Shown: in pieces, positions 1 to 47,107 of the stretch
How the letters are laid out: each line of letters starts with the position of its first letter
Numbering within the stretch: position 1 is the first letter of the stretch
IMG/VR virus record: IMGVR_UViG_2718217859_000006
Reading direction: 5' to 3' (one strand)
Length of the DNA stretch: 50,414 nucleotides
Origin: a virus
Lineage: Duplodnaviria; Heunggongvirae; Uroviricota; Caudoviricetes
Notes under the pieces: model-generated
What the model saw: only the letters and a program-made list of their open reading frames with translations
What the model was told of the DNA's origin: nothing
Database searches by the model: none
Position numbers and translations under genes: made by a program

Positions 1-19
1 CTATTTGATAAATATTAAA

Positions 20-1315
20 TTAATTTTTCATTGCTTCGTTATGGGGCATGGTTGGGGCAAACTCGCTTAACTGTGTATTTAACAAAGCTACCTGTGCATT
101 ATTGTTTTCAGACATCCATTTTCCGTATACCTGAAATACCATTTGCGCATCTGCATGGCCCATCTGGTTTGCTATAAATGCCGGGTTAGCACCAGCTGTC
201 AGCGACCAGCAGGCATAAGTATGTCTCGACTGATATGATTTTCGATGGCGGAGTCCGGCACGTTTTATCGCTGCGTCCCACATCTGCCTTATTGAGTCAA
301 CGGTAAAATGGTCACCATAATTTTTTACTCTCGCTGACACTTCAGGTTGAAAAACAAAGGTGCATTTTTGTTTTTCTGTTCTGCCATACTCTCTGAGGTG
401 AACATCAATGATATGCTCTTTGCTCAGTCTCGTTAATGTCATCTGACTCCGGAGAGCGTCGATTGCTGGCTTAATAAGATGAATGACCCGATTGGTTCCC
501 GCCTGTGTTTTTGGTACCGTGAAACGGTCTTTTGCTAAATTTCTCCTGATCATCATTGTTCCATTTTTCAGATCTATGTCCTCCCATCCAAGTGCACACA
601 GCTCACCAGGGCGAACGCCAGTATAAACAGAAACACACCATAAATTTTTTGCTTGCTGATTTCTGCACGCATCGATAAGACGGATAAATTCCTCCCGCGC
701 AAGAGGATCCGGAATGGTTCTTGATTCCTTTAATGGCGAGATCCCCTTAAACGGATTATCTGCCAGGTAACCGTTATCAACACCAAACTGGAACACGGCG
801 TTAAGATTTGTCATGTAATTATTTACAGTTACAGCCGATCTCCCTGGTTGTGTAACAATATAGTTACTTTTGGGGATCTGGTATCCAGTCAGTAGCTCTT
901 TACGAACCTCCAGTAATTTTTCTTTATTAATCGATGAGGCAAGATTTTTTTCACCGATTATGCTCAGGATATTTTTGATGACGGCACGGTATGTGTTGAG
1001 TGATGTTTTGGCGACTTCAGTTTCTTTCAGTGCCAGAAATTTTTCAGCCAGTTCTTTTATGGTTAAATCTTGTCGGGCCTCACCAAATTTTTCCAGATTG
1101 CGTGAGGAGGGAAACTGTTTTGCATAGTCGAAAACACCAGTTTTTATTGCGTAACAAACAGAGGAGCGTAGTTCACCTGCAACGCGCCTGTTTTTTGCTG
1201 TGTCAGGAACCCCCAGATTTTCCCTGACTCTTACGCCTTTATAAACAAACCAGATACGTAATTTCCCTCCATGGTTTTCCACGCCTGTCGGATATTTCAT
1301 TTCAACTTCTCTCAT
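20..1315 (-). CDS. int: Phage integrase (tyrosine recombinase), full length
   Basis: 431-aa ORF at the prophage edge next to an excisionase-like gene; C-terminal region has the R..HxxR..Y-type catalytic motifs (RHTYACW, QMGH, VFQVYGKW). The second Met (MKYPTG, about 1300) has a better SD and may be the true start. Confidence 0.9.
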   Translation of the reverse strand: MREVEMKYPTGVENHGGKLRIWFVYKGVRVRENLGVPDTAKNRRVAGELRSSVCYAIKTGVFDYAKQFPSSRNLEKFGEARQDLTIKELAEKFLALKETEVAKTSLNTYRAVIKNILSIIGEKNLASSINKEKLLEVRKELLTGYQIPKSNYIVTQPGRSAVTVNNYMTNLNAVFQFGVDNGYLADNPFKGISPLKESRTIPDPLAREEFIRLIDACRNQQAKNLWCVSVYTGVRPGELCALGWEDIDLKNGTMMIRRNLAKDRFTVPKTQAGTNRVIHLIKPAIDALRSQMTLTRLSKEHIIDVHLREYGRTEKQKCTFVFQPEVSARVKNYGDHFTVDSIRQMWDAAIKRAGLRHRKSYQSRHTYACWSLTAGANPAFIANQMGHADAQMVFQVYGKWMSENNNAQVALLNTQLSEFAPTMPHNEAMKN

Positions 1316-1334
1316 TAGTTAGTGTGGCTTTTAG

Positions 1335-1586
1335 TCAAGTAAGATGACGTCTTGGTCTCGCTGATGCCTGGCGCTCAATCCAGCGATCAATTTCTTCCAG
1401 GTTGTAAAAGCATGGACTGTTATCCCATGGCATACCGTCATGAGCGACATGCTTATATTCCCTTCCTTCCATAAACGATTTTTCCCGGGCCTTTTTTAAC
1501 GTACCTTTTTTTATTCCTTTCAGCGCAATTAACTGCTCTTCGGATACCCATTTGCCGGGAGAGACAATCATGATTACTTCGCTCAT
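1335..1586 (-). CDS. Excisionase-like small DNA-binding protein
   Basis: 83-aa basic ORF immediately upstream of int on the same strand, the classic xis position. Confidence 0.6.
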   Translation of the reverse strand: MSEVIMIVSPGKWVSEEQLIALKGIKKGTLKKAREKSFMEGREYKHVAHDGMPWDNSPCFYNLEEIDRWIERQASARPRRHLT

Positions 1587-1658
1587 CGATTTCTTTATCT
1601 CTTACATCAGACGAGCGCCGGTTGCAGAATACCAGTCACAACCGGCGACAGTTGAACA

Positions 1659-4130
1659 TTAAGAATCAGCCTGACTCGGGATCAGTTTTTGCCAGATAAC
1701 TGAAACGTATTTTGCCTGGTAACGGGCGTCATCAAGTGCATTATGGCGCTCACCTTCGAATGGAATAGCCGTTCTGGCATCGAAGTCTATGGCTTTCCCC
1801 AGCTCAACGATTGTGCGTACATCGCGATCGTTGTAGTAACGCCACGGGCAGGGGATCCCCTGCCGTTCGTATGAACGGCGCAAAATCGTGTTGTCGAAGT
1901 TGGCTCCATTTCCCCAAACCTGAACAAAAAATTCACCGGAGTTTTCGTCGATAAATTCCCGCAATTGTAACAGTGCATCATCTAACGGGATTTCATCGGT
2001 CATAATGGCAGATTGCGCTTCGCGTGATTGCTTAAGCCACCATTTAATGGTGTCCCGATCAATGACTCCGCCAGCAGTTTCCAGATCGATAGTCTTACTA
2101 AATTCCGGTCCCATATCTCCGGTTTGCGGATCGAAAAATATTGCACCTATTGAGATGATCGGGGCATCAGGATTTTTTCCCATGGTTTCAAGGTCGATCA
2201 TTAGATGGTCACACGTCCTGCTGGTGGATGTGATTTCGTGATGACCGTTCACCTTAATTGGGTGATCTGCCGTCTCGCCAGTTTCATTATCGCTATTGTG
2301 ATGCTGATTGCCGCCAGTGTTCTCCTTGTGTGGATGTTCAGCGCCTTCCATTTCCTCCGGATCATCTTCCTGAACTTCAACCTGATACTCTTCATCGAAT
2401 GTTTCTTGGTATGTTGCGTCGCCCATCACCGCGCCACAATCAGGGCAGTTGCCGCCGCCGGTCTGACCGCAGGCGGTGCAGGCTTTTTCCACTTCCTGTT
2501 GCGCCACTGGTTCAGGCTGTTTCGTTTCTGGCTCGTTTTGTAACGCATTTGGACTGTTTTGTTCCGCTTTTTGGTAGTTCCGTTCCGATTCATGCTGGTT
2601 CTGGTTCACAGAATCGCGGGTCTGGATCCCCTTAACCCATTTCGGATCATTCGGGTCACTAATCCCTTCAACAAATTCACCACGTGATGCAGCAAGCAAC
2701 TTATCGGCGTCAGGCTGGCTGATATTGGCTGCCTGCATAATTTTGTTTACTTCGTCAGCGGTAACTTTTATCGGCTCTGGTTGTTCTGAATCTTCAGCGG
2801 TATCTACATTTTGCGGTAAGCCCGTGTATGTGCCATTTTTTCGGGCAAAATATTCTTCTTTTGTGATTTCAGTGGCGCCAGCAGCCAGTGCCTTATCCAG
2901 ACCAGAAAGTTTGTTTGCGCGACCGTATTTTTCTCCGTCCTTATCTGCGAAGAGGAAATAGAACGGCCCCTCACGCTCTACAGATGGTTCAGCTTCCGGC
3001 GCGGTTTCATTTTTTGGGATATCAGATACCTCAGTTTCCACTGCATCAGTTTGTGTTTCTGATGACTGGAGAACATCAACAGTGCCCAGGTCTGTTTCTT
3101 CATTCTCAAACACGCCCTTTGTCGTCAGGTATTCGCAGATATATTTGTTCAGTGCTACGGGATCTTTGTGAATGTCGATCGGACGCTCACGGACAAGGCC
3201 AAAAATAGTTTGGCGGTCGTAGCGAAGGGCATCAGGCTGTTTGCGCATTGATGCCGAGATACGCTTCCAGTCTTCGCGGTCGTTGTCGATAACTTCTTTT
3301 TTTGCCCAGCGATGGATGCTGCCGTCAATGTTTCCGGCATCCACATCACCAGGCCAGAGAGCGTAGGCCAGTTCGTCATCCAGTGTTTTCCATGTCTGCT
3401 TGTATTCGCGATGAATGGCAGCAATGACCGGGCTGATTTTTCCTGTTGAATTTTCAGTGTACTGTTGATTGGCTCTGGCGCGGGCGAGATCAACAACAGA
3501 CGTGTATTTTCCGGTTTCCTTGCGTTCACCTTCGCGACGTTTTTTCCAGATGCGCATCTCTGCCTGAATTTCGGGCCATTTAGCACCAGGAATACATTTA
3601 TGCTTAACCCACCCAATGGCGTGCAACTTAAGCTCCGGATACATGGCGTTAACTTCTGGCATTTTCATCAACGCTTCAACGATATGTCCGTCGAATGTTG
3701 CCATGTCTTCCTGCAACAATTCCTGTGCGCTAATAACCATATCAACGGTGATGTTTTCACATGTGTCGAACTTAACCATGACAGCGTTCTGTACTTCAGG
3801 GGCCAGCTTGTCAAAAGTGACGTTCATCGGATCGGATTCAGTCTCAACCGGGACAAAAGAAGCAGACTCCTCATCCCAGCGGTTTTCCTGCATATATTCA
3901 GCATCCCATGAATCGAGGGCAGGGCGGGGTATGCCAGGTTTATCCTCGCAGACAATAAATTTATAAGCGCAGTCCTGAGCAGCCGGATAATGTTCCAGGA
4001 ACTGCCAGTGAAATTTTGCTCGAGCACGGCGTTCGTCGCCAGCTTCAATGGCTGTGGCTACAGCCACAGCGCCTTCTTCCCTTGTTGCCAGTTCGTCAGG
4101 AATAGCGGCGCAAATAAAGACTTTACTCAT
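1659..4130 (-). CDS. Prophage exonuclease (exodeoxyribonuclease VIII-like), C-terminal DnaQ-like 3'-5' exonuclease domain
   Basis: 823-aa ORF with a GAGGT SD; C-terminal 180 aa carry DEDDh-type motifs (MIDLETMG, WGNGANFD, HNALDDA). Sits where the IS2-disrupted ydfE fragment lies in K-12 Qin. Confidence 0.85.
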   Translation of the reverse strand: MSKVFICAAIPDELATREEGAVAVATAIEAGDERRARAKFHWQFLEHYPAAQDCAYKFIVCEDKPGIPRPALDSWDAEYMQENRWDEESASFVPVETESDPMNVTFDKLAPEVQNAVMVKFDTCENITVDMVISAQELLQEDMATFDGHIVEALMKMPEVNAMYPELKLHAIGWVKHKCIPGAKWPEIQAEMRIWKKRREGERKETGKYTSVVDLARARANQQYTENSTGKISPVIAAIHREYKQTWKTLDDELAYALWPGDVDAGNIDGSIHRWAKKEVIDNDREDWKRISASMRKQPDALRYDRQTIFGLVRERPIDIHKDPVALNKYICEYLTTKGVFENEETDLGTVDVLQSSETQTDAVETEVSDIPKNETAPEAEPSVEREGPFYFLFADKDGEKYGRANKLSGLDKALAAGATEITKEEYFARKNGTYTGLPQNVDTAEDSEQPEPIKVTADEVNKIMQAANISQPDADKLLAASRGEFVEGISDPNDPKWVKGIQTRDSVNQNQHESERNYQKAEQNSPNALQNEPETKQPEPVAQQEVEKACTACGQTGGGNCPDCGAVMGDATYQETFDEEYQVEVQEDDPEEMEGAEHPHKENTGGNQHHNSDNETGETADHPIKVNGHHEITSTSRTCDHLMIDLETMGKNPDAPIISIGAIFFDPQTGDMGPEFSKTIDLETAGGVIDRDTIKWWLKQSREAQSAIMTDEIPLDDALLQLREFIDENSGEFFVQVWGNGANFDNTILRRSYERQGIPCPWRYYNDRDVRTIVELGKAIDFDARTAIPFEGERHNALDDARYQAKYVSVIWQKLIPSQADS

Positions 4131-4223
4131 TTTGTTTTAACCTCATGACAGATTTAAGGATGAACAAATCCCTGCCATTGCTGGCATATAAGAATGAAAC
4201 CGGATATTTATTACGGAACTGTT

Positions 4224-4415
4224 TTAAAGACCTGCCGGGATTTCGATATTATCCTGGTGAATAACTTTATCGACCGGGTAACAGTTACCGGGAATTTTCT
4301 GTTCGGTTGCTGCAGTCATACACTCCTGCATTGTCCTGTGAACACTGACTGCAATATCAACTGGCACTCCGGAAACAAGAAAAACTGTCAGAACAAGCGC
4401 AAATGCTGAATTCAT
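4224..4415 (-). CDS. ydfD: YdfD-like small lysis/membrane protein (63 aa)
   Basis: Protein MNSAFALVLTVFLVSG... closely resembles K-12 YdfD as recalled; start overlaps the dicB stop (ATGA). Confidence 0.75.
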   Translation of the reverse strand: MNSAFALVLTVFLVSGVPVDIAVSVHRTMQECMTAATEQKIPGNCYPVDKVIHQDNIEIPAGL

Positions 4416-4600
4416 TGTGCACATCCTTTTGGCATCAGACGTAAACGAGCCAGCATTGAAACAATGCATATTTTATTTAATAGCTCCCGTTCTTGTTTTC
4501 TCTTGTTAATGGCATCTTCAGTAAATACAGGGTTACTGATAGTGACACCAATTTCAAAACAACCTTCAGACGTATTAACGTTTGGTAATAACGTTTTCAT
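4412..4600 (-). CDS. dicB: Cell division inhibitor DicB (62 aa)
   Basis: Protein MKTLLPNVNTSEGCFEIGVTISNPVFTEDAINKRKQERELLNKICIVSMLARLRLMPKGCAQ matches DicB as recalled; lies just downstream of DicF. Confidence 0.85.
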   Translation of the reverse strand: MKTLLPNVNTSEGCFEIGVTISNPVFTEDAINKRKQERELLNKICIVSMLARLRLMPKGCAQ

Positions 4601-4774
4601 TATCGCGTCCTCAACAATGAATTTTGTGATGCAGTGCCTGGTGCCTCCAGGTGACGTTAACCAGTTAACAATTAACGTCGGATACAGAGAATCCACCCAT
4701 AACACTGTTTTTGGTTTTAACTGTTCCGCGTGCGCTTAGCCGTATTCACCGCATCACAAAATTCACTTTAAAAA

Positions 4775-4827
4775 GGGCGGCAGAGCAGTCACGGAGTAAA
4801 ACTGATACCGCCAAACGTCACCAGAAA
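4775..4827 (-). ncRNA. dicF: DicF small regulatory RNA (53 nt, anti-ftsZ), followed by a U-tract
   Basis: Reverse complement reads TTTCTGGTGACGTTTGGCGGTATCAGTTTTACTCCGTGACTGCTCTGCCGCCC then TTTTT, matching the DicF sequence as recalled; correct position between ydfC-like ORF and dicB. Confidence 0.85.
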
Positions 4828-5086
4828 ATTGATAACAGAGGGCGTTGCAGCGGGGTTGTCACTTAAGCGTATGGTCAACCTGACAACCCGGTGTCCTCAA
4901 CGGGGAAGGAATAACCCCGCCATACTTACCGCCGCGCCATTTTGCGGGTTGCCACAACCGGAAGCGCACGGTCGAATTAAATTTAACGACACCGTACAGT
5001 GAGACGAACTTCGCCGTGCGCTTTCGTGTTGTGTGCCTGCTTTTAACCACGTCAGGCGAGGTGGTATCCTTAAAATCACCACAGTT

Positions 5087-5662
5087 TTAAGGATTCATTA
5101 AGCAATGTCGCAACCACCAATAAATCCGCTTAAGAACATGAAAATTGATTACTGGTATAAAGCTCTTACAGTTGTTGGCGCTGCGTTGTTTGTCTTTAAT
5201 GGAACGTCTTTTTTTGACAGATATCCCGTTGTTCCATTGGGTTTTTTGTCCTCCGGCATCTTTTTTATTGGTTTGGGGGAGTGGATTAATCACCCTCTCA
5301 TAGTGAGATTTATTGGTCCTGGAGTTTGGACTCGTGGATATAATCGTTCTTCGTGCGCACTCGGTATCATCTTCGACATACTTGGTTGTTTCCTGATTGT
5401 TACAGGAGTCGTCAAGTTCTTCTGATGTAAAACCGCAAATGGGGCACGTAACGGGAATTTTGAAAAGCGTTTCTCCGGGTTCCAGAACAAAATTTTCTGC
5501 GGTCTGATTTTGCTTCTCATATTTGTGCTCCGCGTCATTGTGAGAGCACATTCTTATTCTGAGTGCCTGTTTAAACTCACTGAAGCTGAGAGCTTCTTCG
5601 CCTTCTGCAAGGCCTTCGAAGTATTCTTCGTAAGCCTTTTCCATGATTGTGTCGAAATCCAT
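5087..5662 (-). CDS. YdfB/YdfC-like ORF of the dicB operon (appears as one continuous 192-aa frame)
   Basis: Strong AGGTGA SD 5 nt before Met (MDFDTIMEKAYEEYFEG...); contains a CPICG zinc-ribbon-like motif; C-terminal 80 aa are low-complexity and overlap a plus-strand ORF. Confidence 0.4.
   Translation of the reverse strand: MDFDTIMEKAYEEYFEGLAEGEEALSFSEFKQALRIRMCSHNDAEHKYEKQNQTAENFVLEPGETLFKIPVTCPICGFTSEELDDSCNNQETTKYVEDDTECARRTIISTSPNSRTNKSHYERVINPLPQTNKKDAGGQKTQWNNGISVKKRRSIKDKQRSANNCKSFIPVINFHVLKRIYWWLRHCLMNP
5105..5425 (+). CDS. Hypothetical small membrane protein (2-3 predicted TM helices), antisense to the ydfB/C-like ORF
   Basis: 106-aa ORF with AGGA SD; strongly hydrophobic segments (ALTVVGAALFVF, GFLSSGIFFIGLG, GIIFDILGCFLIVTGVV). 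Only one of this and the overlapping minus-strand frame can be fully coding. Confidence 0.3.
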   Translation: MSQPPINPLKNMKIDYWYKALTVVGAALFVFNGTSFFDRYPVVPLGFLSSGIFFIGLGEWINHPLIVRFIGPGVWTRGYNRSSCALGIIFDILGCFLIVTGVVKFF

Positions 5663-5663
5663 A

Positions 5664-5819
5664 TCACTCACCTGAGTTTCTTTCCAGCCAGCGACGGGCA
5701 CCATTTTCGGTTTTAAACGTTTTGCTTTTGGTATACGTCATCGCGGTGAACGTGCCGTCCTGGTTGGGGAACACGCCACATACCAGAGATTCGCTGTTGC
5801 CAAGATCGATAGTATCCAT
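5664..5819 (-). CDS. ydfA: YdfA-like small protein (51 aa)
   Basis: MDTIDLGNSESLVCGVFPNQDGTFTAMTYTKSKTFKTENGARRWLERNSGE; first gene of the dicB operon, after dicA on the same strand. Confidence 0.75.
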   Translation of the reverse strand: MDTIDLGNSESLVCGVFPNQDGTFTAMTYTKSKTFKTENGARRWLERNSGE

Positions 5820-5895
5820 GCTGACCTCATTTCCCCTTAACGCCGGGGTAGCGGAACTGTTTGCTGAGAACACCGTGCGGTGTCTTGATGGAGGT

Positions 5896-5946
5896 AATTT
5901 AGTTTTCTCATTATTTTTCGTCAAGGTTTTTTGATGAGAAAACTCA
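5896..5946 (-). promoter_or_regulatory. Putative dicB-operon promoter (-35 TTGACG, 17-bp spacer, -10 TAAATT) flanked by inverted operator half-sites TGAGAAAACT
   Basis: Read on the minus strand: TTGACG-N17-TAAATT; a perfect 10-bp inverted repeat AGTTTTCTCA (5901-5910) and TGAGAAAACT (5935-5944) brackets it. Confidence 0.5.
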
Positions 5947-6011
5947 AGTGTTGGCGCAAGATAAAGCCAATACATTGAAATGTAAGGCTTTAAAATTTTG
6001 TGAAGGGATGA

Positions 6012-6419
6012 TTATTGATGCTTGTTGCGTTTGCGAGCCTCTAATAGCTCGGTGAACAGGCGATTAAAATTCTCAACGCGGGCGCGGAGTTCGCTGAGTT
6101 GTGCTTGTTGCTCTGATTTAGGAAGTGCGCGATACAAACGCAGCATCTCTAACTCATCTTCCGATAAGTCTAAGGCACTATCGAGTGAAACAGGGGGAGC
6201 TGGTGTTTTGTCCTCGTCGCCAAACAGTATCCAAGTTGGTGAACATTGCAATACCTCGGCGAGGCGATGCAAATTTTGCCCGCGCGGGGCTGTATGGTCA
6301 CTTTCCCATAATGAAATTGATGAGCCAGATACGCCAGCAGCTTTGCTTAAACCGTTTTGACTTAAGCCTACCTGCTTACGTCTTTCTCTAATGCGTTGAC
6401 CTAAAGTTTTCTCGTTCAT
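6012..6419 (-). CDS. dicA: DicA-like HTH (XRE-family) repressor
   Basis: From Met-18 of the 152-aa ORF (MNEKTLGQRIRERRKQVGLSQ...), 135 aa like DicA; ends LQCSPTWILFGDEDK...NFNRLFTELLEARKRNKHQ; divergent from a Cro-like gene. Confidence 0.85.
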   Translation of the reverse strand: MNEKTLGQRIRERRKQVGLSQNGLSKAAGVSGSSISLWESDHTAPRGQNLHRLAEVLQCSPTWILFGDEDKTPAPPVSLDSALDLSEDELEMLRLYRALPKSEQQAQLSELRARVENFNRLFTELLEARKRNKHQ

Positions 6420-6440
6420 ATTTAGATATCTTAATAACCC

Positions 6441-6484
6441 TTGACTTGAGATTCCTTGAGTGATTAGCATTGAGAAAACTCAAT
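6441..6484. promoter_or_regulatory. dicA/dicC divergent control region with operator-like repeat ATTGAGAAAACTCAAT and a -35-like TTGACT
   Basis: Same TGAGAAAACT motif as at the dicB promoter; TTGAG occurs three times within 45 bp; located between the divergent repressor genes. Confidence 0.45.
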
Positions 6485-6496
6485 ATTGGAGGTGCG

Positions 6497-6724
6497 ATGT
6501 TTAAATCAGACGTAATTAATTTTTACGGTACGAAAGCCAAAGTAGCGAAAGCTGCTGGCGTTGACCCATCTGCTGTTTCTCAATGGCAAGAGCTGGTTCC
6601 TGAAGGTCGCGCGATGCGTCTACAGGAGGCATCTGGCGGCGAGCTTCTGTATGATCCCAAGGTTTATGACGAATATCGTAAGACGAAGCGGGCGGGGCGG
6701 TTGAACAATGAAAATCACTCCTGA
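6497..6724 (+). CDS. dicC: DicC-like (Cro-like) regulator
   Basis: 75 aa from ATG with GGAGG SD (MFKSDVINFYGTKAKVAKAAG...EGRAMRLQEASGGELLYDPKVYDEY); divergent from dicA. Confidence 0.8.
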   Translation: MFKSDVINFYGTKAKVAKAAGVDPSAVSQWQELVPEGRAMRLQEASGGELLYDPKVYDEYRKTKRAGRLNNENHS

Positions 6725-7229
6725 ACAGGCTCGTGAGGCTCTGGATGCCTGGATATGTCGACCAGGAATGACACAGGAGCAGGCGACGATATTAATCACT
6801 GAAGCATTCTGGGCTTTGAAAGAGCGCCCGAACATCGATGTTCAGCGTGTCACAGATGAAGGTGGCGCGGTTGATCAGCGAGCACTTGGCGTTAATCGAG
6901 TGAAGATATTCGAACGCTGGAAGGCTATCGACACCAGGGATAAGCGTGAAAAGTTCACGGCGCTAGTGCCTGCAATTATGGAGGCTATTCGGATTAATGA
7001 TTTCAGGTTGTATCGTGAAATTAGTGACGGAAAAAGCATCACGTACATGATCGCCGGGTTAAACAAAGAATATGGCGATGTGGTGGAGTCCGGACTGCTT
7101 TTTGCTGATCCTGCCGTAGTGGATCGTGAAACTGACGAACTTATAGAAAAAGCAATTGCTTTCAAACTTGCGTATCGACAGCAATACCAACAAAAAGCTG
7201 GATGGAATTATGAGCCTTCTTTTTGCTGA
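6708..7229 (+). CDS. YdaT-like protein (lambdoid early-right operon)
   Basis: 173-aa ORF directly after the cro-like gene, the position YdaT occupies in Rac. Confidence 0.65.
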   Translation: MKITPEQAREALDAWICRPGMTQEQATILITEAFWALKERPNIDVQRVTDEGGAVDQRALGVNRVKIFERWKAIDTRDKREKFTALVPAIMEAIRINDFRLYREISDGKSITYMIAGLNKEYGDVVESGLLFADPAVVDRETDELIEKAIAFKLAYRQQYQQKAGWNYEPSFC

Positions 7230-8175
7230 ACGCCCACTGGTTATAAACACACAGCTTGCGATGAAGATTGGCTTAAATGAAGCCATTGTGTTGCAGCAGT
7301 TGCATTACTGGTTGAGAGATACCAATTCCGGCATGGAATGTGATGGTGTTCGCTGGATTTACAACACAACGGAACAATGGCTGGAACAGTTCCCATTCTG
7401 GTCAGAGTCAACGTTAAAGCGCGCGTTTGCAAGTCTGAAAACGCTGGGGCTTTTGCGTTGTGAAAAGCTCAATAAATCAAAGCGCGATATGACCAATTTC
7501 TACACGATCAACTACGGGAGCGAGCTTTTAGATGGTGGCAAATTGAGCGAATCCATCGGTTTAAAATGCGCCGCTCCATCAGGTCAAAATGACACGATGG
7601 AAGAGGTCAAAATGAAACGCTCCATTGGTTCAAAACGACCCAATGTCATCGGGTCAAAATGGCCTGATGATCTTACAGAGAATACAACAGAGATTACTAC
7701 AGAGAATAAAAACACTTTTCGTCCGGAAGCTTCGCAACCGGATCCGCAGACCGCTGAACAGGATTTTTTAACCCGGAACCCCGACGCGGTTGTGTTTAGT
7801 GCGAAAAAACGCCAGTGGGGTAGCAGGGAGGATTTGGCGTGTGCGCAGTGGATTTGGGGGCGGATCGTGAACCTTTACGAACAGGCTGCCAGCGACGATG
7901 GAGAGATCATGCGACCAAAAGAGCCTAACTGGACAGCCTGGGCCAATGACGTGCGCACAATGCGGATGCTGGATGGCAGAAGCCACAGACAAATTTGCGA
8001 AATGTTTGGTCGGGTACAGCGAGATCAATTCTGGGTAAAAAACATCATGAGCCCGTCAAAACTCCGCGAAAAATGGGACGAACTGGTCATCCGCCTGGGA
8101 CGTTCACCTGTAAAGCGTTGTGTGAATCATATTTCTGAACCGGATACAGAAATTCCGCCTGGTTTCAGGGGATAA
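7210..8175 (+). CDS. Putative replication initiation protein (winged-helix N-terminal domain)
   Basis: 322 aa from ATG 7210 (the track start at 7156 is TTG); N-terminal region LNEAIVLQQLHYWL...TLKRAFASLKTLGLL resembles phage replication-initiator DNA-binding domains; position after cro/ydaT. Confidence 0.6.
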   Translation: MSLLFAERPLVINTQLAMKIGLNEAIVLQQLHYWLRDTNSGMECDGVRWIYNTTEQWLEQFPFWSESTLKRAFASLKTLGLLRCEKLNKSKRDMTNFYTINYGSELLDGGKLSESIGLKCAAPSGQNDTMEEVKMKRSIGSKRPNVIGSKWPDDLTENTTEITTENKNTFRPEASQPDPQTAEQDFLTRNPDAVVFSAKKRQWGSREDLACAQWIWGRIVNLYEQAASDDGEIMRPKEPNWTAWANDVRTMRMLDGRSHRQICEMFGRVQRDQFWVKNIMSPSKLREKWDELVIRLGRSPVKRCVNHISEPDTEIPPGFRG

Positions 8176-8635: not shown

Positions 8636-10380
8636 AATGTCCCCAGACAATTCTCTGGGGGATTTTTCATGATCAAAGAGACTGTTACGATGAGTCATAA
8701 GGAACTCCACCGACTTCAGATTATTCAGGAGTCAATTAATCGACATATTACTCAGGAACAAGCTGCGGCACGCATTGGCATTTCTATTCGGCAGGTTAAA
8801 CGTCTGGTGCAACGGTATAGAAATGAAGGGCCTTCTGGTCTGGTTTCCCACCGACGTGGAAAGCGTCCTAATAATTCCTTTTCTACTGAATTCAGAGCAA
8901 CAGTAATTTCACTCCTCAAAGGCCGTTACGCTGATTTTGGACCTACGTTTGCGTGCGAAAAATTGCGCGAGATACACGGTTTATCTTTATCCGTTGAAAC
9001 TCTCAGAAAGTGGATGATAGAAGAGGGGTTATGGCGTGAACGCCGTCGTAAAATTGCCCGTATATATCAACGCCGCATGCGACGACCATCTTACGGTGAA
9101 CTGATCCAGATTGATGGCTCACCTCATGACTGGTTTGAAAATCGAGGCCCCAGATGTACACTGATCGTTTTCATTGATGATGCCACCAGTGCGTTGATGG
9201 CGTTGCGTTTTGTGCCTGCTGAAACAACCCGGGCTTACATGGAAACCCTCCGGGGTTACCTTAATGATCATGGCGTACCGCTCGCTCTCTACTCTGATAG
9301 ACACAGTATATTCAGGGTAAATAACCCAGAGCGGGAAGGTGAGCTGACCCAGTTCACTCGTGCGATAAAGACACTGGGCATCGAGCCAATCCATGCCAAC
9401 AGCCCGCAGGCAAAAGGGCGGGTAGAGCGCGCCAATCAGACACTACAGGACAGGCTGGTCAAAGAAATGCGGCTTCAGAATATCAGTGATATTGAAACAG
9501 CAAATGCATGGTTGCCGACCTTTATTGAAGCCTATAACAACCGGTTCGCTACGTCGCCTCGTACTACTGATAATGCTCATCTTGATGTGCACCATTCTGA
9601 AGAGGAACTGGGTTATATCTTCAGCCTACAGGCGAAGCGCGTTCTGTCTAAAAATCTCACTTTCCAGTACAAAAGCAGTGCGTTTCAGGTACGCAGTGAG
9701 GGCCGGGGATATCGACTTAGGCATTCGGTTGTTACTGTATGTGAGAACTTTGACGGTGAAATTAACGTTCTGTATGACGGGAAAGCGCTGGGCTGGGAAA
9801 AGTATGTTGATGGCCCGGAGCCTATACCACTGGATGATGAAAAGAGTGTCCATGAACGAGTGGATAATGCCCGTATTGATTTACGCTCAAAATACTATGT
9901 TAAATCTAAAGCTGACCATCCCTGGCTTACGCGCCGAACGCAAAGTCATCAGCAAGTTAAGCCCCCGAAGTTACCTAAAAAGAAGCCTGATCCCGATAAA
10001 ATAGATTGAAACCAAGATCGATTCGGTTGAGTGCATATCCATTCATAGGGTAGATTCTTAAGTCGCGTTTCTGGTGTTCATTTTCGGGTGGTTTGTTACT
10101 TGTTTTACCGGGGATATGCCAGAAACGCGCTGAGTCAGTCTGGGCGGTGCGCGTAATGAGGCGTTATGGTAAATAGCCTATGCTAATGTCCGCTAAGAGC
10201 AAGAAGCGGAAGTTGGCAGTTTTGTGGACTGTCCCCACAAAAGTGACTACAGAAATAGTTGCAATTCATAATTGATCATGGGTTGTCAGTTAAACTCGTG
10301 GCGATTTAAATAGACTAATTGGGAGTGCGTCCATTACTTATATCTTGTAATGTTAACTATCAGAAATGATACAAAGATAA
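8600..10380 (+). mobile_element. Insertion sequence with a single rve-domain DDE transposase (IS481-like or ISNCY-like); ends not resolved
   Basis: Single 446-aa transposase ORF flanked by non-coding DNA that interrupts the nin-like region; no clean terminal inverted repeats could be identified by eye. Confidence 0.5.
8669..10009 (+). CDS. DDE transposase (N-terminal HTH plus rve integrase-core domain)
   Basis: 446 aa; HTH segment IGISIRQVKRLVQRY; catalytic core with DGSPHDWF, LYSDRHSIF and HANSPQAKGRVERANQTLQDRL (D,D,E-type motifs). Confidence 0.85.
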   Translation: MIKETVTMSHKELHRLQIIQESINRHITQEQAAARIGISIRQVKRLVQRYRNEGPSGLVSHRRGKRPNNSFSTEFRATVISLLKGRYADFGPTFACEKLREIHGLSLSVETLRKWMIEEGLWRERRRKIARIYQRRMRRPSYGELIQIDGSPHDWFENRGPRCTLIVFIDDATSALMALRFVPAETTRAYMETLRGYLNDHGVPLALYSDRHSIFRVNNPEREGELTQFTRAIKTLGIEPIHANSPQAKGRVERANQTLQDRLVKEMRLQNISDIETANAWLPTFIEAYNNRFATSPRTTDNAHLDVHHSEEELGYIFSLQAKRVLSKNLTFQYKSSAFQVRSEGRGYRLRHSVVTVCENFDGEINVLYDGKALGWEKYVDGPEPIPLDDEKSVHERVDNARIDLRSKYYVKSKADHPWLTRRTQSHQQVKPPKLPKKKPDPDKID

Positions 10381-12280: not shown

Positions 12281-12532
12281 ATGATGAACATCGAAGAACT
12301 GCGTAAAATTTTTTGTGAAGATGGCCTCTATGCTGTGTGCGTTGAAAATGGAAATCTTGTTAGTCATTACCGCATTATGTGTTTGCGAAAGAATGGGGCT
12401 GCGTTAATTAATTTTGTGGATGCTCGGGTCACGGACGGATTTATCTTGCGCGAAGGTGAGTTTGTCACTTCATTACAGGCATTGAAAGAGATCGGAATAA
12501 AAGCTGGCTTTTCTGCTTTTTCAGGAGAATAA
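12281..12532 (+). CDS. rem: Rem-like small protein
   Basis: 83-aa ORF MMNIEELRKIFCEDGLYAVCVENGN... in the position rem occupies in Qin. Confidence 0.75.
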   Translation: MMNIEELRKIFCEDGLYAVCVENGNLVSHYRIMCLRKNGAALINFVDARVTDGFILREGEFVTSLQALKEIGIKAGFSAFSGE

Positions 12533-15328: not shown

Positions 15329-15628
15329 AAAAATTCCTTAATACTGATAACTTGGCGCACTATACACACGTTCCTGAAGAAAGCTATAGTTTTTTGATGG
15401 GGTTGAAGATGGCTGGATGTCTAAAATAAACATTGCTTCATATGTTCAACTATGCGTTAATGATTGCGTCGGTTTGAAGAACAGACGATATACGAAGTAG
15501 TTTACTAAAGCAGTTCTCATTTCAGGTGTTATTCACTTATTCCTTCTTTGAGTCTCTCCAATTAAGTACGAAGTCGTTTCTGTTATGCAAACCATTTATG
15601 CCGAAAGGCTCAAGTTAAGGAATGTAGA

Positions 15629-15844
15629 ATGTCAAATAAAATGACTGGTTTAGTAAAATGGTTTAACGCTGATAAAGGTTTCGGCTTTATTTCTCCTGTT
15701 GATGGTAGTAAAGATGTGTTTGTGCATTTTTCTGCGATTCAGAATGATAATTATCGAACCTTATTTGAAGGTCAAAAGGTTACCTTCTCTATAGAGAGTG
15801 GTGCTAAAGGTCCTGCAGCAGCAAATGTCATCATTACTGATTAA
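15629..15844 (+). CDS. cspB: Cold-shock protein, CspB type
   Basis: 71 aa [38 protein letters not shown]... with RNP1/RNP2 motifs. Confidence 0.85.
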
Positions 15845-16125
15845 AATTCATCGCTCGTCTGTATACGATAACGAAGAAGGCTGATGCCTGAGTAGAGATA
15901 CGGACAGAGTAGTGAATATTGGATCTCTTTAATAAAAAGTAAGGAGGTCCAATACATGAAACAATGGCTAGCATATTTGGCAAAATCTTAATCAGGAAAA
16001 GTATGCTAACCATTGTGGTGAAGTGCAGGTTTGCTGCATGAATAGTTTTACAGCAGAAGCTAACTGCTGGCATGGCAAAACAAAGTGCGTAAGTGGATGA
16101 CTCCCACAAAAAGCACCACAATCTC

Positions 16126-18153: not shown

Positions 18154-18515
18154 GGTAATATTAAATCGGAACATTTACATCGCGGAATGTAAAATTTGAA
18201 TAAAAAGGACTCTTCCATGAGCCAAAATTCCTGAAATCTTAAGGGTAAGATAAAAGGTCTTAATCAGAATGACACGTTTTATTAATAAATAAAGCTATTC
18301 TTTCATTGCTGTGTTTTTCTTTACAAAAGTAATCCTTGCTATGGGTGGTTAATCATGCGTTAATGGTGTTCTGGTTTGTTACAAATTTATCTGAAGCAGT
18401 CATTGTTATAATTTTATTATTTGTACCTCTTGAGATTTCCTTGTTGGTTTTTCTCTCTGATATTTTTTTTCGGACCATTCTGCCCAAGGGCTAATTTCTT
18501 CAAAAGGTAATAATT

Positions 18516-18728
18516 ATGTCTAACAAAATGACTGGTTTAGTGAAATGGTTTAACCCTGAAAAAGGTTTTGGTTTCATCACGCCGAAAGATGGCAGCAAAG
18601 ATGTGTTTGTCCATTTCTCAGCAATTCAGAGCAACGATTTCAAAACATTAACTGAGAATCAGGAAGTTGAATTTGGTATTGAGAACGGACCTAAAGGTCC
18701 TGCCGCTGTTCATGTAGTGGCGCTTTGA
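18516..18728 (+). CDS. cspI: Cold-shock protein, CspI type
   Basis: 70 aa [45 protein letters not shown]... Confidence 0.85.
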
Positions 18729-18999
18729 GGTAGACAATATTACAAACCATATTCACTTTAGATGCCCGTGTTGTCATGGTTCCCAGTATAGAACATCATC
18801 TTTTGATGTTTCTGACATGAATCCTTTCGGGGCAAAATGTATCTTTTGTAAATCAATGATGATTACATTTGATAATATTTCACAATACTTAAATGCCAGC
18901 CGTCTGTCGTTGGATTTAAAAAAGTGAAAATGAAGGCTCCTTCGGGAGCTTTTTTGCTTGGTGTCTATTCGATGGATACTCACATACTACGGTAACATC

Positions 19000-22276: not shown

Positions 22277-23848
22277 ATGGACACCTCACTTGCTCATGAG
22301 AACGCCCGCCTGCGGGCACTGTTGCAGACGCAACAGGACACCATCCGCCAGATGGCTGAATACAACCGCCTGCTCTCACAGCGGGTGGCGGCTTATGCTT
22401 CCGAAATCAACCGGCTGAAGGCGCTGGTTGCGAAACTGCAACGTATGCAGTTCGGTAAAAGCTCAGAAAAACTTCGTGCAAAAACCGAACGGCAGATACA
22501 GGAAGCACAGGAGCGAATCAGCGCACTTCAGGAAGAAATGGCGGAAACGCTGGGTGAGCAATATGACCCGGTACTGCCATCCGCCCTGCGCCAGTCTTCA
22601 GCCCGTAAACCGTTACCGGCCTCACTTCCCCGTGAAACCCGGGTTATCCGGCCGGAAGAGGAATGCTGTCCTGCCTGTGGTGGTGAACTCAGTTCTCTGG
22701 GATGTGATGTGTCAGAGCAACTGGAGCTTATCAGCAGCGCCTTTAAGGTTATCGAAACACAACGTCCGAAACAGGCCTGTTGCCGGTGCGACCATATCGT
22801 GCAGGCACCAGTACCTTCAAAACCCATTGCACGCAGTTATGCCGGAGCGGGGCTTCTGGCCCATGTTGTCACCGGGAAATATGCAGACCATCTGCCGTTA
22901 TACCGCCAGTCAGAAATATACCGTCGTCAGGGAGTGGAGCTGAGCCGTGCCACACTGGGGCGCTGGACAGGTGCTGTTGCTGAACTGCTGGAGCCGCTGT
23001 ATGACGTCCTGCGCCAGTATGTGCTGATGCCCGGTAAAGTCCATGCTGATGATATCCCCGTCCCGGTCCAGGAGCCGGGCAGCGGTAAAACCCGGACAGC
23101 CCGGCTGTGGGTCTACGTCCGTGATGACCGTAACGCCGGTTCACAGATGCCCCCGGCGGTCTGGTTCGCGTACAGTCCGGACCGGAAAGGTATCCATCCA
23201 CAAAATCACCTGGCCGGTTACAGCGGTGTGCTTCAGGCCGATGCTTACGGTGGTTACCGGGCGTTATACGAATCCGGCAGAATAACGGAAGCCGCGTGTA
23301 TGGCTCATGCCCGGAGAAAAATCCACGATGTGCATGCAAGAGCGCCCACCTACATCACCACGGAAGCCCTGCAGCGTATCGGTGAACTGTATGCCATCGA
23401 GGCAGAGGTCCGGGGCTGTTCAGCAGAACAGCGTCTGGCGGCAAGAAAAGCCAGAGCCGCGCCACTGATGCAGTCACTGTATGACTGGATACAGCAACAG
23501 ATGAAAACACTGTCGCGTCACTCAGATACGGCAAAAGCGTTCGCATACCTGCTGAAACAGTGGGATGCACTGAACGTGTACTGCAGTAATGGCTGGGTGG
23601 AAATCGACAACAACATCGCAGAGAACGCCTTACGGGGAGTGGCCGTAGGCCGGAAAAACTGGATGTTCGCGGGTTCCGACAGCGGTGGTGAACATGCGGC
23701 GGTGTTGTACTCGCTGATCGGCACATGCCGTCTGAACAATGTGGAGCCAGAAAAGTGGCTGCGTTACGTCATTGAACATATCCAGGACTGGCCGGCAAAC
23801 CGGGTACGCGATCTGTTGCCCTGGAAAGTTGATCTGAGCTCTCAGTAA
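22277..23848 (+). CDS. IS66-family transposase TnpC (orf3)
   Basis: 523 aa; N-terminal coiled coil, CxxC...CxxC zinc ribbon (CCPACGG, CCRCDH), DDE core. Confidence 0.9.
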
Positions 23849-36847: not shown

Positions 36848-37546
36848 ATGCAGGATATTCCACAGGAAACACATCATGAGACGACACGCCTCACTCAGTC
36901 AGCCCAGGTGGTGCTCTGGGAAATCGATCTGACAGTGGTCGGTGGAGAACGTTATTTTTTCTGTAATGAGCAGAACGAAAAAGGTGAGCCGGTCACCTGG
37001 CAGGGGCGACAGTATCAGGCGTATCCCATTCAGGGGACGGGATTTGAACTGAACGGCAAGGGCAGTGCTGCCCGTCCGACACTGACGGTTTCTAACCTGC
37101 ACGGCATGGTCACCGGGATGGCGGAAGATCTGCAGAGTCTGGTCGGAGGAACGGTGGTCCGGCGTAAGGTTTACGCCCGTTTTCTGGATGCGGTGAACTT
37201 CGTCAACGGAAACAGTGACGCCGATCCGGAGCAGGAGGTGATCAGCCGCTGGCGCATCGAGCAGTGCAGCGAACTGAGCGCGGTGAGTGCCTCTTTTGTA
37301 CTGTCCACGCCGACGGAAACGGACGGTGCCGTTTTTCCGGGACGTATCATGCTGGCCAACACCTGCACCTGGACCTATCGCGGTGATGAGTGCGGTTATC
37401 ACGGTCCGGCGGTCGCGGATGAATATGATCAGCCGACGTCCGATATCACGAAGGATAAATGCAGCAAATGCCTGAGCGGCTGTAAGTTTCGCAATAACGT
37501 CGGCAACTTTGGCGGCTTCCTTTCCATTAACAAACTTTCACAGTGA
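36848..37546 (+). CDS. Minor tail protein L
   Basis: 232 aa, the same length and position as lambda L; C-terminal Cys cluster. Confidence 0.85.
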   Translation: MQDIPQETHHETTRLTQSAQVVLWEIDLTVVGGERYFFCNEQNEKGEPVTWQGRQYQAYPIQGTGFELNGKGSAARPTLTVSNLHGMVTGMAEDLQSLVGGTVVRRKVYARFLDAVNFVNGNSDADPEQEVISRWRIEQCSELSAVSASFVLSTPTETDGAVFPGRIMLANTCTWTYRGDECGYHGPAVADEYDQPTSDITKDKCSKCLSGCKFRNNVGNFGGFLSINKLSQ

Positions 37547-46532: not shown

Positions 46533-47107
46533 TGGCATTCAGAATGAGTGAACAATCACGGACCATAAAAATTTATAATCTGCTGGCCGGAACTAATGAA
46601 TTTATTGGTGAAGGTGATGCATATATTCCGCCTCATACAGGTCTGCCAGCAAACAGTACCGATATTGCACCGCCAGATATTCCGGCAGGCTTCGTGGCTG
46701 TTTTCAACAGTGATGAGTCATCGTGGCATCTCGTTGAAGATCATCGGGGTAAAACGGTTTATGACGTGGCTTCCGGCGACGCGTTATTTATTTCTGAACT
46801 CGGTCCGTTACCGGAAAATGTTACCTGGTTATCGCCGGAAGGAGAGTTTCAGAAGAGGAACGGCACAGCCTGGGTGAAGGATACGGAAGCAGAAAAACTG
46901 TTCCGGATCCGGGAGGCGGAAGAAACAAAAAACAACCTGATGCAGGTAGCCAGTGAGCATATTGCGCCGCTTCAGGATGCTGCAGATCTGGAAATTGCAA
47001 CGGAGGAAGAAATCTCGTTGCTGGAAGCATGGAAAAAGTATCGGGTATTGCTGAACCGTGTTGATACGTCAACTTCACAGGATATTGAATGGCCAGCACT
47101 GCCGTAG
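46532..47107 (+). CDS. tfaQ: Tail fibre assembly protein (Tfa)
   Basis: 191 aa; start overlaps the stf stop (ATGG/TAATGG); typical Tfa position. Confidence 0.85.

Follow-up and report, generated by a model that had tools for sequence, protein, structure and literature searches.

A canonical dicF gene, very probably in the early-left operon of a full-length Qin-type prophage with a diverged DicA-family repressor

The closest described system is the dicBF operon of the cryptic prophage Qin in E. coli K-12, where the promoter dicBp, the processing of the transcript by RNases III and E, and the action of Rem have been established experimentally (PMC10448788). A 190-nt species generated by RNase III and the 53-nt DicF species have been described for K-12 (PMC10448788), and the stretch from which they derive is a long untranslated region in which dicF lies (PMC5069750). 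Rem relieves repression by DicA (PMC10448788), and Oc is an experimentally supported DicA operator (PMC3441716). The targets of DicF include ftsZ together with metabolic targets (PMC5069750). A remark from 2016 held that phage databases contained no hits to DicB or DicF (PMC5069750). This remark is now outdated, given that we found the dicBF module in 57 phage records, isolated phages included, and one of these records annotates DicF explicitly. A functional phage with dicB, dicF, dicAC, and rem, mEp460_ev081, was discussed in a 2023 paper (PMC10448788), which leaves no room for the novelty that a preliminary description of the locus studied here had implied. Among 5426 complete E. coli genomes, the DicF precursor was present in 4270 (about four of five), at up to 8 copies per genome.

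The window analyzed here is the whole 50,414-nucleotide stretch of the viral record IMGVR_UViG_2718217859_000006. We conclude with high confidence that the DicF sequence in this window is the canonical dicF and that it belongs to the early-left (PL-type) operon carried by a lambdoid prophage of the Qin family, present at full length. The small RNA is made up of the following features:

4774..4826, minus strand: dicF, the 53-nt DicF sRNA (Rfam RF00039, K-12 identity, and fold)
4770..4774, minus strand: T5 tract of the DicF intrinsic terminator (read from the sequence and seen in the fold)

The Rfam scan took in the whole window and returned four matches above the gathering score, DicF among them. 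On the minus strand, the whole length of RF00039 (1-52/52) aligned to positions 4775-4826 with 76.7 bits (E = 2.8e-15), well above the gathering score of 48 bits, so that the covariance-model search bore out the preliminary call. The 53 nucleotides at 4826..4774 (TTCTGGTGACGTTTGGCGGTATCAGTTTTACTCCGTGACTGCTCTGCCGCCCT) are identical at 53/53 positions to the annotated K-12 dicF (b1574). When DicF was folded alone at minimum free energy, the first 14 nt were unpaired and were followed by the terminal hairpin and UUUUU. The preliminary description had placed DicF at 4770-4830 on the minus strand with its U-tract, and the Rfam match, the K-12 identity, and the fold show that coordinates, strand, and tract were all correct. 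The window holds a single DicF copy, at the Qin site. Given the identity to K-12 and the published targets (PMC5069750), this DicF would be expected to repress ftsZ, which lies outside the window, and other targets by base pairing. We also observed that, in genomes identical to the window, PGAP lists dicB, ydfD, and ydfA, omits the dicF ncRNA, and leaves the gap between dicB and the truncated ydfB empty.

On the minus strand, the order from high to low coordinates is repressor, promoter, ydfA, ydfB remnant, a block of about 0.5 kb, DicF leader, dicF, dicB, ydfD, exonuclease, xis, and int, with ydfA, dicF, dicB, and ydfD keeping the K-12-type order on a single strand. The genes of the operon are as follows:

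5664..5819, minus strand: ydfA (DUF1391), the first gene of the operon (annotation of identical genomes; K-12 alignment; phrog_751)
5561..5662, minus strand: N-terminal remnant of ydfB (PGAP pseudogene in identical genomes; the first ~34 codons match K-12 ydfB, followed by divergence)
4412..4600, minus strand: dicB, 62 aa (PF05358, 136.8 bits; one synonymous difference from K-12)
4224..4415, minus strand: ydfD (lysis protein), 63 aa (annotation; phrog_1092; two substitutions relative to K-12)
4173..4186, minus strand: weak terminator-like hairpin after ydfD (consensus scan only)

The gene about 170 nt downstream of DicF is dicB, as had been proposed. The description of the dicB operon as complete does not hold in the K-12 sense, since ydfC is missing and ydfB is represented only by its N-terminal part. 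In the K-12 alignment, similarity was lost after ydfB codon ~34 until ~5045 and was near-perfect from 4975 onward; full-length ydfB is absent, and the region between ydfB and dicF that holds ydfC in K-12 has been replaced. In a six-frame tblastn search of the whole window, K-12 YdfC (72 aa) had no relevant match; its top hit (E = 2.6) fell at 17.6 kb, which is an unrelated site. An apparent "extended YdfB" ORF of 191 aa on the minus strand (5662..5087) was considered and rejected as a shadow ORF: its only match was phrog_35040, which is the same ORF call, and distant homologues conserve the opposite strand. Because a terminator-like site follows ydfD and no transcripts were detected extending beyond ydfD in K-12 (PMC10448788), co-transcription of the operon with the exonuclease, xis, and int genes is not supported.

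These three downstream genes are listed below:

1659..4130, minus strand: exonuclease, 823 aa, full length (PF16473 3'-5' exonuclease domain at residues 642-813)
1335..1586, minus strand: excisionase (xis), 83 aa (PF06806, 108 bits)
20..1300, minus strand: tyrosine integrase (int), 426 aa (arm-binding and catalytic domains)

The claim that int, xis, and the exonuclease gene are intact here, unlike in K-12 Qin, was supported, given that all three are full length with the expected domains and that K-12 carries an IS2-associated deletion. K-12 ydfE matches residues 1-256 of the 823-aa exonuclease at 100% identity and then breaks off, the alignment contained no K-12 counterpart of xis, and K-12 intQ, which follows an IS2 remnant, aligns only from ~120 nt into int and so is missing roughly 40 codons at its start. 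The window is a Qin-type prophage of full length (~49 kb) that lies between a truncated ydfJ and rspB and is much more complete than K-12 Qin. In genomes that are 100% identical over positions 1-7300 of the window, rspB adjoins int, and at its right end the window aligns with truncated ydfJ in OkiPb01701; integration between truncated ydfJ and rspB is the site of the cryptic Qin in K-12. The window contains the Qin cargo (flxA, ydfV, relBE, hokD, rem, ydfU, an antiterminator Q homologue, cspB/F/I, and lysis genes) together with genes for terminase, portal, capsid, and tail, all of which have been lost from K-12.

Several side observations were made across the rest of the prophage. A 446-aa ORF at 8669-10009 (plus strand), located after O-like and Ren-like genes, consists of a truncated IS1202-like ISEsa1 transposase reading into a ydfW fragment. 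This ISEsa1/ydfW junction likely marks where the remainder of the replication/nin region was deleted and, in consequence, the prophage may be replication-defective despite its intact int and xis. The minor tail protein L gene (36848-37546, plus strand) is an intact 232-aa ORF, and an internal stop is annotated in the 99.9%-identical OkiPb01701 prophage. Rfam cspA-thermoregulator matches at 15468-15860 and 18370-18755 (plus strand) scored 158.8 and 112.8 bits, respectively, and relatives annotate cspB, cspF, and cspI there. An Rfam IS009 match at 46875-47073 (plus strand, 220.9 bits) falls inside the tail-fibre assembly gene tfaQ by OkiPb01701 coordinates.

The expression of dicF would be expected to depend on the immunity region, whose features are as follows (promoter and operator entries are putative and were assigned from consensus matches and repeat statistics):

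6012..6419, minus strand: DicA-family (CI-type) repressor, 135 aa (NCBIfam NF007257, 239 bits, cutoff 101; HTH_3; 57% identical to K-12 DicA)
6497..6724, plus strand: DicC/Cro-type regulator, 75 aa, divergent from the repressor (NF007282, 165 bits, cutoff 130; P22_Cro; 70% identical to DicC)
5896..5924, minus strand: candidate PL/dicBp-type promoter TTGACG-17-TAAATT (promoter scan; position homologous to K-12 TTGACC-17-TAATCT)
6441-6470, plus strand: candidate rightward promoter TTGACT-18-TAGCAT (promoter scan)
5898..5911, unstranded: operator-like repeat overlapping the leftward promoter's spacer and -10 (repeat search)
5934..5947, unstranded: operator-like repeat just upstream of the leftward-promoter -35 (repeat search)
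6470..6483, unstranded: perfect operator-like palindrome, TTGAG-AAAA-CTCAA, at the rightward promoter's -10/start (repeat search)
12281..12532, plus strand: rem, the DicA antirepressor in K-12 (100% identical to K-12 Rem)

The 14-bp inverted repeat TTGAG-N4-CTCAA, searched with at most two mismatches, occurs in three copies in 50 kb, all of which are at the two divergent promoters (shuffle mean, 0.48). The K-12 dicBp has the same two-site layout with a different sequence. The K-12 DicA operator Oc (TTGTTAGTCATAACTAACAA), which our sequence search found in K-12, was absent from the window at up to 3 mismatches, and the two K-12 dicBp operator sites were absent from the window as well. The part of the repressor most diverged from K-12 DicA is the HTH region. 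The preliminary description had put DicF downstream of a DicA-controlled promoter. What stands of this is a leftward promoter beside a DicA-family repressor; the identity of the controlling protein as DicA itself does not, given the 57% identity, the absence of Oc, and the presence of the TTGAG-N4-CTCAA repeat in its place. The leftward promoter is very likely under repressor control, but without K-12 DicA specificity. This difference in repressor and operators is ordinary lambdoid phage heteroimmunity.

Rem is 100% identical to its K-12 counterpart versus 57% for the repressor that it would target; either Rem recognizes the better-conserved C-terminal part of DicA-family repressors, or the pair is mismatched. 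Sensitivity to Rem and the induction signals of K-12 (urea and heat) may not apply to a 57%-identical repressor with different putative operators. We also considered SOS control of rem, which was rejected because no LexA box was found near the gene; CTGT-N8-ACAG occurs once in the window, at 23416 and a long way from rem, a count that is at chance level.

Between the ydfB remnant and dicF lie the DicF leader and the block that has replaced the K-12 sequence:

4827..4975, minus strand: conserved leader of the DicF precursor, in which the 190-nt RNase III species would start near 4963 (comparison of copies)
4859..5050, minus strand: 63-aa ORF, the "ydfC-like ORF" of the preliminary description, judged not to be a gene (no YdfC similarity; frame not kept)
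5045..5560, unstranded: replacement block unrelated to K-12, in place of the ydfB C-terminus and ydfC (K-12 pairwise alignment; GC 0.42)
5105..5425, plus strand: 106-aa predicted membrane-protein gene, unannotated, antisense to the operon (tblastn; homologues; motifs)

The stretch of ~200 nt upstream of DicF is near-identical to K-12, and the known RNase III/RNase E precursor of 190 nt falls within it. The leader is almost invariant in five copies (window, K-12, Tritos, vB_EcoS-640R1, and HannyBb), with mosaic flanking DNA, and has a GC content of 0.55 versus 0.42 in the replacement block. In the predicted 271-nt fold (z = -2.7), the 3' half of DicF pairs with the leader and a hairpin surrounds the expected RNase III site; the window and K-12 differ by C/U in one arm of this hairpin. 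Processing to the 190-nt and 53-nt species is predicted here from a leader substrate near-identical to that of K-12, where the processing was mapped.

The replacement block was found at a coverage of at least 80% in 795 of the 5426 complete E. coli genomes and also in phage HannyBb, and it contains long ORFs on both strands. By tblastn, the 106-aa protein encoded on its plus strand has distant relatives: it shares 46.9% identity, in frame, with gp33 of Burkholderia phage Bcep176 and 38.5% with phage mEp390, where the annotated mEp390_039 runs on the other strand from the matching frame. Its database homologues number 60, are typically of ~100-110 aa and all called "hypothetical," and come from hosts that include E. 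coli, Yersinia, Herminiimonas, and Reinekea. The motifs D-x-WYK and GxGEWxNHP are invariant in the family, which also has hydrophobic segments, and the protein matched nothing in Pfam, PHROGs, NCBIfam, or PADLOC. PGAP leaves 5105-5425 unannotated. Judged by its homologues and motifs, it is a real, uncharacterized gene for a predicted small membrane protein, antisense inside the dicBF operon. Annotations routinely overlook this gene or assign it to the wrong strand. The mEp390_039 annotation (phage mEp390, JQ182729.1, 2956-3411) is probably itself on the wrong strand, the opposite ORF being the one conserved with the 106-aa gene and Bcep176 gp33. We speculate, though we consider it rather unlikely, that this gene, convergent on the leftward operon, is expressed from the repressed prophage and could modulate the transcript reaching DicF and DicB, or that it is a prophage-expressed exclusion or defence moron inserted because the site is silent in lysogens.

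The reading of this region as an RNA precursor within a repressor-controlled operon has to be weighed against several alternatives. One is that 5050..4859 codes for a small YdfC-like protein and that the conservation belongs to this protein and not to the RNA precursor. The ORF does exist, and its sole match, phrog_8854, shows that phage annotators have called the same ORF, the cluster consisting of these very calls. However, the 63-aa product has no YdfC similarity and no family in Pfam or NCBIfam, and the annotators do not agree on a frame over the leader, as the HannyBb annotation uses a different one. The same frame is only 36 aa in K-12 and is broken by a 1-nt insertion in phage vB_EcoS-640R1. 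Given that the ORF is broken in relatives while the DNA is near-invariant, the conservation belongs to the RNA precursor, in keeping with the published K-12 untranslated region and mapped 190-nt species (PMC5069750, PMC10448788). We therefore give the protein-coding reading next to no credence, and the "ydfC-like ORF" placed upstream of DicF has to be withdrawn: it sits on the conserved precursor, and K-12 YdfC has no match in the window. ORF callers put spurious genes on the DicF precursor.

With the RNA-precursor reading preferred, the question becomes how much transcription reaches it and from where. It could be argued that dicF is intact but poorly expressed here, the replacement block with its convergent gene interrupting or attenuating leftward transcription. 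A real opposite-strand gene does lie between the truncated ydfB and the DicF leader and could lower the transcription that reaches DicF, and the truncation of ydfB and the loss of ydfC point the same way. We consider this improbable, given that the consensus scan found no terminator-like site on the minus strand between the leftward promoter and DicF and no intrinsic terminator-like site on either strand within 4827-5896, and that a search for a consensus promoter of the antisense gene came up empty. Moreover, those 795 genomes and HannyBb, an isolated phage, keep the arrangement of block plus DicF, and the sequence constraint on the DicF leader is obvious. Transcription of DicF from its own promoter within the leader, apart from the repressor-controlled operon, is less probable still. 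An older study, as cited in PMC10448788, suggested another promoter upstream of dicB, but we found no promoter-like site on the minus strand between 5896 and 4826. In addition, primer extension and RNase mutants in K-12 attributed the DicF 5' ends to processing, with no internal promoter (PMC10448788), and the leader here is near-identical to that of K-12.

The preferred reading, expression of DicF from the repressor-controlled leftward operon, leads to the following proposed mechanism. In the lysogen, the DicA-family repressor (6419..6012) would bind the TTGAG-N4-CTCAA operators over the leftward (5924..5896) and rightward cro-type promoters. Inactivation of the repressor, most plausibly by the prophage's own Rem antirepressor or through spontaneous CI/Cro-type switching, would release a polycistronic RNA from near 5889. 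This RNA would pass ydfA, the ydfB remnant, and the replacement block, whose gene would be read antisense, into the structured DicF leader, where RNase III would cut to give the ~190-nt species and RNase E would trim it to the 53-nt DicF, the 3' end being generated by the intrinsic terminator at 4774. The DicF hairpin would act as a leaky terminator, and read-through would lead to the expression of dicB and ydfD. DicF, with Hfq, would then base-pair with the ftsZ, manX, xylR, and pykA mRNAs, and DicB would redirect MinC such that FtsZ ring formation is blocked. The processing, the targets, the action of Rem, and the co-expression are carried over from K-12 experiments, and the K-12 model should apply, given the identity in sequence and arrangement.

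In summary, the call of DicF at this locus is correct, and the element itself is already well known, given that the operon, its processing, its repressor/antirepressor control, and its occurrence in prophages and functional phages have all been published. What is mildly new is confined to the antisense gene that had been missed and to the pairing of a heteroimmune repressor with an identical Rem, and the importance of the locus beyond its correct annotation is small. This more intact Qin allele could nevertheless suit a natural study of the benefit of dicBF to a phage with int, xis, and structural genes. The segment is also common: at least 80% of the 7.3-kb int-to-cII segment was present in 1422 E. 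coli genomes, several of which were 100% identical.

Compared with the dicBF operon of K-12 Qin (b1570-b1579), the window has identical DicF, DicB protein, and Rem and near-identical leader, ydfA, and ydfD. It shares with K-12 Qin the ydfJ/rspB site and the relBE, hokD, flxA, and cspB/F/I cargo. The two differ in that K-12 Qin has ydfC and a full ydfB, whereas the window has the block with the antisense membrane-protein gene; in the repressor (57% identical), the Cro-type protein (70% identical), and the operator sequences; and in extent, the window spanning ~49 kb with head, tail, and lysis genes and intact exonuclease, xis, and int, versus 20.5 kb for K-12 Qin. The O157:H7 EHEC prophages CP-933M/O/P carry multiple dicF copies at other integration sites and in other backbones, in contrast to the single copy at the Qin site in the window. 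Phages mEp460_ev081, Tritos, HannyBb, and vB_EcoS-640R1 share with the window the order repressor, small ORFs, DicF, dicB, ydfD, and exonuclease; these are isolated phages, in contrast to the window, an integrated prophage whose replication genes are followed by an IS-truncated junction. Unlike the window, Tritos and vB_EcoS-640R1 keep a K-12-type ydfC, with a YdfC-family gene ~340 nt upstream of DicF as in K-12. HannyBb, on the other hand, is 99.4% identical to the window over 4400-5100 and carries the same replacement block.
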